Assembly (NCBI RefSeq): GCF_044704955.1
Contig: NC_091991.1
Span: 5,146,001 to 5,210,000 of the forward strand
Reading direction: 5' to 3'
DNA: 64,000 bases
From: Pristiophorus japonicus
Lineage: Eukaryota
Shown here: in pieces, positions 1 through 7,254 of the stretch
Layout of the letters: the number at the start of each line of letters is the position of its first letter
How positions within the stretch are numbered: the first letter of the stretch is position 1
Notes under the pieces: generated by a model
The model's database searches: none
What the model was told of the DNA's origin: nothing
Seen by the model: only the letters and a program-made list of their open reading frames with translations
Translations under genes and position numbers: made by a program

Positions 1-425
1 GTTTGAGACCCAACTTTCTCACCCTCAAACTGAATTTGAAATTAAACCATGCTATGATCACTCTTTCCTCAAGGATGAGTTACTATGAGTTTCTCATTAC
101 ACAGTACCAGATCTAAGATAGCCTGCTCCCTGGCTGGTCACACAACGTACTGTTCAAGGGAATCATCCTCGATACACTTTGAACTCTTCCTCAAGGCTAC
201 CCTGACCAATTTGATTTGTTCAATCAATATGAAGATTAAAATCGCCCATAGTTGTTGCTGTACCTTTCTTACAAGCCGCCATTATTTTTTGATTTATACT
301 CTGTCCTACAGTGTAGCTACTGATGGGGGGCCAATAGACTACGCCCACAAGTGACTTCACAGAATCTTACAGCACAGAAGGAGGCCATTCAGCCCATCGT
401 GCCTGTGCCGGCTCTTTGAAAGAGC
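1..425. repeat. Direct duplication, copy A (near-identical to 6830-7254); CR1 endonuclease fragment joined to a CR1 3' tail
   Basis: GTTTGAGACCCAACTTTCTCACC...GGCTCTTTGAAAGAGC recurs at 6830-7254 with only a few substitutions, including the same junction between two unrelated repeat fragments. ORFs 85..354 and 6914..7183 translate almost identically. Confidence 0.95.
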
Positions 426-1313
426 GATCCAATTAGTCCCACTCCTCCTGCTCTTTTCCCATAGCTCTGCAAGTTTTCCCTCTTCAAACTATTTATCCAG
501 TTCCCTGTTGAAAGTTGTCACTAATCTGCTTCCACTACCCATTCAGGCAGAGCATTCTGGGTTATTATAATCACGCTGGAACATTTCTTACCCCTCATGT
601 CGCTTCTGGTTCTTTTGCCAATTACCTTAAATCTTTGTTCTTTGATTAGCGACCCTTCTGCCACTTGAAATACTTTCTCCTTATTTACTCGATCAAATCC
701 CTTCATAATTTTGATTACCTCTATCAAATCTCCCCTTAACCTTATCTGCTCTAAGGGGAGCATAGGAACAGGAGTAGGCCACTTAGCCCCTGGAACCTGT
801 ACCCTCATTCAATGGGATCATGGCTGATCTGTGACCTAACTCCATATACCTGCCTTTGCCCCATATCCTTTTATATCTTTGGTCAACAAAAAGCTATCAA
901 TGTCAAATTGTAAATTAACAACTGACCCGGCATCAATTGCAGAATATGGAAGTGAGTTCCAAACTTCTCCCACCATCTGTGTGTAGAAGTGTTTCCTAAT
1001 TTCACTCCTGAAAGGTCTGACTCTAATGTTTAAACTCTGACCCTCGTCCTAGACTCCCCAACCAGCGGGAACAGTTTCTCTCTGTCCACCCCATCTGTTC
1101 CCCTTAATATCCTGAAAACTTTAATCAGATCACCTCTTAACCTACTAAATTCCAGGGAATACAAACCTAATTTGTGTAATCTCCCCTCGTAATTTAACCC
1201 TTGGAGTGCGGGTATCATTCTGGTAAACCTACACTGCACTCCCTCCAAGGCCAATATATCCTTCCTAAGGTGTGCTTCCCAGAACTGAACACAGTATTTA
1301 AGGTGTGGTCTAA
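357..1313 (-). mobile_element. Two CR1 LINE 3' fragments; the second resumes at ~3267-3420
   Basis: Minus-strand ORFs 521..808 and 1030..1254 encode CR1 ORF2 C-terminal motifs (RLRGDLIEVIKIMKGFDRV, LGLYSLEFSRLRGDLI). Confidence 0.85.
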
Positions 1314-4414: not shown

Positions 4415-7185
4415 CTCTTGTGCTCACTTCTATGTCCCTGCCCACAGACCACAACCTTTCACTCCCTTATCGCTCAAAAACATGCCTCTCTCCACCTTCA
4501 CTTTGTTCAATCACCCAGCCTCCACAGCTCTCTGGGACAGAGAATTACACACATTTACAACACTCACACAACAAATTCCCCCTCATCTCACTTTTAAATG
4601 GCCCACCCCTTATTCTCAAACTATGCCCTCTACTTAGACATTCCCCCATCAGGGGAAACATCCTCTCTGCATCCACCTTGTTAAGGCCCCTCACTATCTT
4701 ATATATTCAAAGAGGTTCACCTCCCGTTCTTCGAAATTCCAATGAGCACAGGCCCAACCTGCTCAATCTTTCTTCATAAGTCAACCCCCTCATCTCGGCA
4801 ATCAACCCTGTGAACCTTCTCTCAACTGCCTCCAGTGCAAGTATATCCTTCCTTAAATAAGGAGAACAAAGCTGTACGCAGTACTCCAGATGTGGCCTCA
4901 CCAATACCCTGTACAGTTGTAGCAGGACTTCCCTGCTTTTATACTCCATCCCCCTTGCAATAAAGGCCAACATTCCATTTGCCTTCCTGATTACTGCTGT
5001 ATCTGCATAATAACCTTTTGTGTTTCATGTACAAGGACCCCCAGGTCCCTCTGTACTGCAGCATTATGTAATCTCTCTCTATTTAAATAATAATTTGCTT
5101 TTTTATTTTTCCTGCCAAAGTGGATAACCTCACACTTTCCCACTTTATACTCCAACTGCCATATGTTTGCCCACTCACTTAGCCTATTTATATCCCTTTG
5201 CAGATTGTTTGTGTCTTCCTCACAATTTGCTTTCCCACCCAGCTTTGTATCATCAGCAATTACACTCGGTCCCTTCATTCAAGTCATTAATATAGATCAT
5301 AAATATTCATGATGAGACCCCAGCACTGATTCCTGTGACACCCCACTAGTTACAGTTTGCCAAACGGTAAATGACCCATTTATCCCGACTCTCTGTTTTC
5401 TGTTAAACATAGAAACATACAAAGTAGGTTCAGGAGTAGGCCATTCGGCCCTTCGAGCCTGCACCACTCTTCAATATGATCATGGCTGATCATGCAACTT
5501 CAGTACCACATTCCTGCTTTCTCTCCATACCCCTTGATCCCTTTAGCCGTAAGGGCCACATCTAACTCCCTTTTGAATATATCGAACGAACTGGCCTCAA
5601 CAACTTTCTGTGGTAGAGAATTCCACAGGTTCACAATTCTCTGAATGAAGAAGTTTCTCCTCATCTCGGTCCTAAATGTTAGTTAGCCAATCCTCTATCC
5701 ATGCTAATATATTACCCCCAGCCACGTGAGCTCTTATCATGTACAGCAACGGTCTATGTGGCACTTTATCGAATGCCTTCTGGAAATCCAAATACACCAC
5801 ATCCACTGGTCCCCCCTTATCCACCCTACTCGTTACATCCTCCAAGAACTCCAGCAAATTTGTCAAACATCATTTCCCTTTCATAAAACCATGCTGACTC
5901 TGCTTGATTAAATCATGCTTTTCCAAATGTCCAGCTCCTGCTTCCTTAATAATGGACTGCAGCATTTTCCCAACGACAGATGTTAGGCTAACTGGTCTAT
6001 AGCTTCCTGCTTTCTGTCTCCCTCATTTTTTAAATAGGGGCGTTACATTTACAGTTTTCCAATCCGCTGGGACCTTTCCAGACTCCAGGGAATTTTGGTA
6101 GATTGTAAGTAATGCATCCACTATCTCTGCAGCCATTTCTTTTAAGATCCTAGGATGCAGGCCATCGGGTCCAGGGGACCTGTCCACCTTTAGTTCCATT
6201 ATTTTACAGAGTACTTTTTCTGTAGTGATAGTGATCTTTTAAGTCCGCTCCCACACCTATAGCCTCTTGATTATCGATTATAGGGGTATTTTTAGTGCCT
6301 TTTACCGTGAAAACCAATACAAAATATTTGTTCAACGTCTCTGCCATTTTCCTGTTCCCTCTTATTATTTCCCCAGTCTCATCCTCTAAGGAGCCAACGT
6401 TTACCTTAGCTACGCTCTTCCTTTTTATATAACTGTAGAAGCTCTTGCTATCTGTTTTTATATTTCTTACTAGTTTACTCTCAAAACCCATCTTCTCTCT
6501 CTTTATTATTTTTTTGTCGTCCTTTGCTGATTTTTTAAAATTTCCAAATCCTCAGGCCTCCCATTAATGTTGGCAACATTGTCTGCCATTGTTTTCAACT
6601 TGATACCATCCTTTATTTACTTCCTTAGTTAGCCACGGATGGTTCTCCCTTCTCTTAAAAGCTTTCCTTCTCACTGGAATATACTTTTGTTGCGAGAAAT
6701 GAAATATCTCCTTAAATGTCTGCCACTGCTCATCAACTGTCTTACACTTTAATCTATTTTCCCAGTCCACTTTAGCCAACTCTGCCTTCATAACCTTTAT
6801 AATCACCTTTATTTAAGATCAGGACATTGGTTTGAGACCCAACTTTCTCACCCTCAAACTGAATTTGAAATTCAACCATGCTATGATCACTCTTTCCTCG
6901 AGGATGATTTACTATGAGTTTCTCATTACACAGTACCAGATCTAAGATAGCCTGCTCCCTGGCTGGTCCCACAACGTACTGTTCAAGGGAATCATCCTCG
7001 ATACACTTTGAACTCTTCCTCAAGGCTACCCTGACCAATTTGATTTGTTCAATCAATATGAAGATTAAAATCGCCCATAGTTGTTGCTGTACCTTTCTTA
7101 CAAGCCGCCATTATTTTTTGATTTATACTCTGTCCTACAGTGTAGCTACTGATGGGGGGCCAATAGACTACGCCCACAAGTGACT
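4415..7185 (-). mobile_element. Decayed CR1 LINE ORF2 with a younger CR1 3' fragment nested at ~5406-5677
   Basis: ORFs 4707..4973, 4991..5278, 5672..5866, 6204..6491, 6564..6806 and 6772..7056 are collinear CR1 ORF2 pieces (VRPHLEYCVQ, ADDTKLGG, YLDFQKAFDKVPH, GKSDHSMVEF). The nested piece is flanked by TGTTA on both sides. Confidence 0.9.
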
Positions 7186-7254
7186 TCACAGAATCTTACA
7201 GCACAGAAGGAGGCCATTCAGCCCATCGTGCCTGTGCCGGCTCTTTGAAAGAGC
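6830..7254. repeat. Direct duplication, copy B of 1-425
   Basis: Near-identical to 1-425; offset 6829 bp. Confidence 0.95.

Follow-up and report, generated by a model that had tools for sequence, protein, structure and literature searches.

Spacings of several kilobases between 5S rRNA genes are already known in fish. As far as the excerpted study goes, the zebrafish somatic-type 5S cluster on chromosome 18 comprises 12 genes, has spacers of several kb and includes retroelements (Locati et al., 2017, PMC5340908), and the 11 intervals computed from its Table S1 span 1,959-10,472 bp (PMC5340908). In the portion of the stingray study drawn on here, 5S units of about 450 bp and of 1.7-1.8 kb are organized in regular tandem arrays (Pinhal et al., 2011, PMC3123226). 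Regarding the composition of spacers, insertions of transposable elements (TEs) into those of fish 5S genes are relatively frequent, with LINE, SINE and DNA-transposon cases in the part of a review that is cited here (PMC10946416).

The locus described here lies in a 64-kb stretch of Pristiophorus japonicus DNA (the window; NC_091991.1, positions 5,146,001 to 5,210,000). The reading that we favour, and to which a probability of roughly 40% is given, is that 5S genes occupy introns 1 and 4 of the calcyphosin-2 gene CAPS2 and that the TE-filled intron-4 stretch, as one unit of 6,829 bp, underwent a head-to-tail duplication. Unequal exchange involving two CR1 3' ends is its probable mechanism, and a third 5S gene would then be expected about 2.6 kb to the left of the window. 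The two genes present in the window are full length and on the minus strand, namely 5S-A in intron 4 (4247-4365; Rfam RF00001, 101.9 bits) and 5S-B in intron 1 (17292-17410; RF00001, 104 bits); both cover model positions 1-120, the gathering score being 38, and both are oriented in the CAPS2 sense. The former is the intact gene recognized by the initial annotation, which had missed the latter. Each has a TTTAA (TATA-like) motif at -30 and a T4 terminator, and both are probably transcribable by Pol III, judging from their sequences; a TATA-like upstream element and a poly-T terminator have been described for fish 5S genes in the section cited (PMC3544641). No third 5S gene, full or degenerate, was found in the 64-kb window, the other three BLAST matches being only 12-20 bases long, and no tRNA was found in it. 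In a search of sequence runs with 3268-4440, 0.67 of its words occurred in four DNA runs of one sample, and no RNA run was among the matches listed; two flank motifs of 23-24 bases had 0 matches in metagenome contigs. Upstream of 5S-A, positions 4407-4434, absent from B, carry on the minus strand a motif which we take to be CCAAT-like.

The assignment of the locus to CAPS2, made in the initial annotation, is borne out. One exon-bearing frame had matches in ten calcyphosin-2 proteins, exclusively of sharks and rays and headed by that of Pristiophorus japonicus, and TBLASTN delineates four coding exons with AG/GT borders on the minus strand, i.e., the first coding exon at 18966-19034, exon 2 at 15270-15316, exon 3 at 11668-11713 and exon 4 at 10259-10384. 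Together they encode the first 96 residues of the Pristiophorus japonicus protein, with zero differences by inspection. The next CAPS2 exon, which that annotation proposed to locate, is not found after exon 4 within the window, so that intron 4 must exceed 10.2 kb. Upstream of CAPS2 and on the same strand, a RIC3-family domain gene extends over about 27200-42950 (minus strand; Pfam PF15361, E 7e-14, at 36301-36684), its other probable exons near 42900 and at 28251-28433 and 27206-27520 having no Pfam match. Immediately upstream of the first coding exon of CAPS2 there is a 32-bp GC-rich minisatellite of about 80 copies (19414-22038), and what is probably the first exon of the RIC3-like gene lies between GC-rich minisatellites at 41891-42789 and 42937-43378.

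The two 5S genes lie within a shared block. From copy A to copy B (16535-17449, minus strand, delimited by alignment to copy A), homology comprises 39 bases upstream of the gene (4366-4404 in A, minus strand, with the TTTAA at -30), the gene, 236 downstream bases (4011-4246, minus strand, with the T4 at the gene end), a SINE-like repeat, a label that we assume, and a CR1 fragment. It stops just upstream of the TTTAA motif at one end and does not extend past 1259/16535 at the other. Differences between A and B number 2/39 upstream, 1/119 in the gene, 1/190 in the next 190 bases and 3/46 further on; in the SINE and CR1 flank (3268-3723 in A, 16592-17038 in B) 28 of 437 aligned positions are mismatched (about 6.4%), and at 1259-1314, past the CR1 insertion, 8 of 56 differ. 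Only copy A carries a MITE-like element (3742-4010; short terminal inverted repeats, TA on both sides, single in the window) and a 1.9-kb CR1 (1315-3196, plus strand), a broken ORF2 with frameshifts and stops. The latter is inserted into an older CR1 3' part (762-1314, minus strand) that resumes beyond it at 3268-3425. The conserved 5S core is framed, in B as in A, by a 7-base inverted repeat (4012-4018 and 4397-4403 in A) that may be due to chance; no target-site duplication was seen around the core so bounded.

Over the gene and its 190 downstream bases, A and B differ at only 2 of 309 positions (0.6%), and the 190 bases are closer than the flank (Fisher p 0.0006). The 230 bases downstream of 5S-A do not behave as a structured RNA, an equally good fold being reached by 130 of 200 shuffles (z 0.43), and an Rfam scan of 3260-4240 returned two matches, both far under the gathering score. 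Since these bases show no special fold and belong to no RNA family by these measures, gene conversion is a likelier cause of their likeness than selection, one or the other presumably holding the gene and the next 190 bases alike. The contrast of a 0.6% core with a 6.4% flank would make a conversion tract measurable between two copies that sit in different introns. A and B are separated by three single-copy exons, which therefore were not copied along with the block; these exons and a distance of 13,045 bp, or 1.91 times the 6,829-bp offset, also put 5S-B outside the 6,829-bp period.

The evidence for a duplication around 5S-A is a direct repeat. Positions 1-425 and 6830-7254 are identical at 421 of 425 positions without gaps at an offset of 6829 (self-BLAST of the 64-kb window), which upholds the near-identity noticed in the initial annotation, and among 88 self-alignments of at least 250 bp, minisatellites left out, this pair has the top identity. 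Its divergence of 0.94% (4/425; 95% interval 0.26-2.4%) is about one seventh of that of the A/B flank; dated by the epaulette shark rate, the two would correspond to about 7 and 46 million generations, of which the older looks too high for the lineage, and the ratio alone is used. All four mismatches (positions 44, 71, 79, and 140) fall within the first 140 bases (p ~0.01), a clustering that counts against the favoured reading, and similarity ends at 425/7254. Compared with CR1 relatives, sites 44 and 140 look altered in the left copy and site 71 in the right; site 79 is ambiguous, the change looking, less clearly than at 71, to be in the right copy. Mismatches distributed in this way over both repeats are the pattern expected for two real copies.

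The repeat joins a CR1 body (1-356) to a different CR1-type 3' end, named E1 (357-762, minus strand), of which 69 bp belong to the left copy. Because it spans this junction, it does not represent two independent copies of one TE, and the earlier remark that it crosses a junction of unrelated fragments holds in this form. The 425-bp repeats were also considered as LTRs of one element and rejected as such, being CR1 fragments with no boundary at 6830. When aligned to two relatives, CR1 is continuous through 6829/6830, so that 6830 is no boundary and the repeat is at least 425 bp long, the window edge clipping its left copy; homology very likely continues to the left of position 1.

The right copy terminates at 7254, where E1 is cut and joined via a 2-base overlap to a fragment truncated at both ends (7253-7588, plus strand), presumably RTE-like. 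A one-step tandem duplication places its new junction between the copies, here at 425/426. The plainly new junction sits instead at 7254/7255, and the alignment of E1 runs unbroken across 425/426, which counts against a simple one-step tandem model. Exchange between two E1 copies, a later deletion or a non-tandem copy can reconcile the position of this junction with the repeat; taken without extra assumptions, it would fit one of the last two. With regard to exchange, private substitutions of E1 relative to two relatives occur at 1 of 45 sites in 357-425 as against 49 of 243 in 426-762, where they begin at 426 itself (Fisher p 0.002). This step points weakly to a hybrid element produced by head-to-tail exchange between two CR1 3' ends; of two controls, one is flat (6/50 vs. 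33/227) and the other reversed (13/57 vs. 20/214), and comparably quiet windows exist in E1 at 607-656 (3/44) and 707-756 (1/28). Exchange further requires a crossover in the last few bases of the 69-bp homology, which counts against it. A tandem unit of 6,829 bp, set at 426-7254 from the offset of the direct repeat and a putative junction, is nonetheless the likeliest geometry, at somewhat better than even odds. To this extent the 6.83-kb tandem unit of the initial annotation stands, while the periodicity that it might imply is missing on the right side of the unit, self-BLAST of the 64-kb window showing no repetition at the 6,829-bp offset there. The predicted third 5S gene, at about -2,582 to -2,464, is a fairly probable expectation; its odds are those of one or few extra units and those of an established array added and rounded, and, like all odds given here, are judged rather than computed. 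It is likely that the 5S-A stretch of dead retroelements was recently duplicated head to tail, which for the growth of a small 5S cluster would be an unusual, not unprecedented, route.

The best surviving alternative is a local duplication that was not in tandem, whereby a piece made of CR1 and the E1 stub (from 0.4 to about 2.8 kb long) was copied 6.8 kb rightward to a place beside 5S-A, the 5S gene not being part of the piece. The new junction on the right-hand side of the right copy, together with an E1 unbroken in the left copy, is what such an event would leave, and the CR1 at 4435, whose 3' tail is lost and which abuts the 5S upstream region, offers a candidate left breakpoint. The E1 divergence step lying exactly at 426 is set against this, and events of this size are more often head-to-tail duplications, which also weighs against it; we consider the non-tandem copy rather unlikely, if less so than the explanations that follow.

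How far the unit can be regarded as a 5S spacer depends on its content. Other repeats within the window match 87% of 426-7254, where frameshifts and stops disrupt the CR1 frames; most of the right part is a broken CR1 without 3' tail (4435-7185, minus strand), into which a CR1 3' fragment intrudes at about 5405-5677. At 3111-3265, a CR1 3' end and, behind it, a similar fragment in inverted orientation form a fold-back. The repeat share is also 87% in the adjoining intron stretch (7255-10258); it is 36-42% in the other three introns. With a TE density equal in the unit and next to it (0.87), the unit is ordinary repeat-rich intron and not a visibly specialised spacer, so that of the TE-debris spacer initially proposed the TE content is retained and the special relation to 5S is not. 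Elsewhere in the window, 43914-47342 (minus strand) holds an open CR1 frame of 1,142 aa in a young, internally duplicated LINE, with internal copies 96-97% identical (44619-44919 vs. 46737-47037; 45850-46118 vs. 47038-47306), and at 43749-43897 a CR1 3' end is found in a perfect 73-bp tandem duplication. Broken frames at 58099-62030 (plus strand) resemble an LTR retrotransposon that we take from its translations to be of Gypsy type, and a non-LTR fragment at 39746-40489 (plus strand) has a zf-RVT match just below the Pfam cut-off.

The initial annotation had proposed that the window may catch the last unit of a 5S tandem array inside CAPS2. Spelled out, this would be an established array whose right end falls in the window, with at least 3 units of 6.83 kb homogenised by unequal crossing over in CAPS2 intron 4. 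Array ends are often partial units, which suits this proposal, as do visible repeats only ~1% diverged, a unit holding an intact gene with promoter and terminator, and 10.2 kb without a further CAPS2 exon; conversion from a nearby array would moreover account for the 0.6% of the A/B core. It is nevertheless unlikely, since there is no period to the right, copy B stands at 1.91 periods with a different structure, the TE density of the unit is that of the neighbouring intron stretch, and the second unit is visible for 425 bp only.

An assembly artefact, in which two haplotypes or overlapping contig ends were written in tandem, is very improbable. High identity would be expected from it, and the lower end of the 95% interval (0.26%) is near the nucleotide diversity of a shark, which is 0.002 in the epaulette shark according to the part of the source used (PMC10587355). 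The point estimate of repeat divergence is, however, about five times that diversity, the window contains no N (count of 0), the repeats differ by substitutions that are distributed over the two of them, and the two copies run on into different, biologically sensible sequence.

Two mobile 5S-bearing elements were considered for the cassette and rejected. SINE3, a 5S-derived SINE, starts at 5S +1 and runs on into a LINE-type tail, and A and B have 39 upstream bases in common and a T4 directly after the gene. Cassandra-like elements make independent insertions with target-site duplications and unrelated flanks; for such a 5S-bearing LTR or solo LTR, no target-site duplication was seen here, and the downstream flank is common to A and B. 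More generally, that the 5S cassette is itself mobile (5S-derived SINE, 5S-bearing LTR or TIR element), the 425-bp repeat being unrelated to it, is the least credible explanation, for although two near-identical copies lie within 13 kb with a sharp common boundary at -39 and with the 7-base inverted repeat in both, the common upstream bases and the T4 are unlike a Pol III retrocopy, a target-site duplication is not visible, and the SINE-CR1 junction downstream, common to A and B, means that these are not independent insertions.

Under the favoured reading of a head-to-tail duplication, the history of the locus could be as follows. The block common to A and B extends from -39 across the gene and over ~0.75 kb on its downstream side, consisting of flank, SINE-like repeat and CR1. 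An ectopic event, about seven times older than the 6.8-kb duplication, would have carried a copy of it from one intron to another and left the exons behind. With the 1.9-kb CR1 and the MITE now inside the block of copy A only, the long "spacer" is accumulated intron debris, while conversion or selection kept the gene and its next 190 bases alike and both genes probably remained transcribable by Pol III. A recent duplication with its junction at 425/426 may then have given rise to one or few extra units, the outcome being a segmental duplication that happens to include a 5S gene and not an established rDNA array. A more ambitious version, which we regard as doubtful, sees in the CAPS2 intron a working 5S array being born, a dispersed 5S gene having been captured with 6.7 kb of dead retroelements in a unit that would be amplifying by unequal exchange, with gene conversion matching a sister copy three exons away.

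Upstream units, if they exist, would make the locus an illustration of how a 5S array starts from a single dispersed gene, and the origin of a long spacer would be visible in it, B keeping the short ancestral block and A the TE-swollen one. If they do not, the case reduces to a local duplication of TEs, of an ordinary kind, next to one of the two 5S genes in CAPS2 introns. No published description of 5S genes at the CAPS2/calcyphosine locus was found in the literature searched, subscription journals and database annotations lying outside that search.

Regarding likeness to known systems, unequal exchange between TE copies results in repeat-mediated tandem segmental duplication, and the putative hybrid TE at the junction, with a same-family stub at the opposite end, is in keeping with this class. 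The homology is only 69 bp here, however, and the junction is deduced from a weak divergence step. The 5S gene of the window shares the states of the shark rows at columns 17, 21, 49 and 68-69 of the supplement-3 alignment, by eye, and so belongs, as far as this part of the source goes, with the elasmobranch-specific 5S type (PMC3123226); its nearest row there is Alopias superciliosus, and column 18 differs from the shark rows (PMC3123226). No resemblance by eye was found between its flanks and the stingray spacers shown (PMC3123226). Unlike the fish cases in the cited part of the review, which are insertions into a pre-existing spacer, the CAPS2 interval is almost all TE debris, apparently host intron (PMC10946416). 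As in the zebrafish somatic cluster, in so far as it is described in the excerpts, there are few near-identical 5S genes on one strand with irregular several-kb spacing and non-LTR retroelements (PMC5340908), A and B differing at 1 of 119 positions and lying 13,045 bp apart. A base spacing of about 1.96 kb and inserts consisting of 5S-targeting Mutsu elements are the zebrafish cluster's own (PMC5340908), whereas at the CAPS2 locus the filler is CR1/SINE/MITE debris, the gene is uninterrupted, and the genes are in introns of a protein-coding gene. The CAPS2 locus would thus resemble a low-copy, long-spacer (somatic-type) 5S cluster; against the portions of the precedents that were compared, what appears new is that two introns of one protein-coding gene house 5S genes and that host-intron debris makes up nearly all of the unit.
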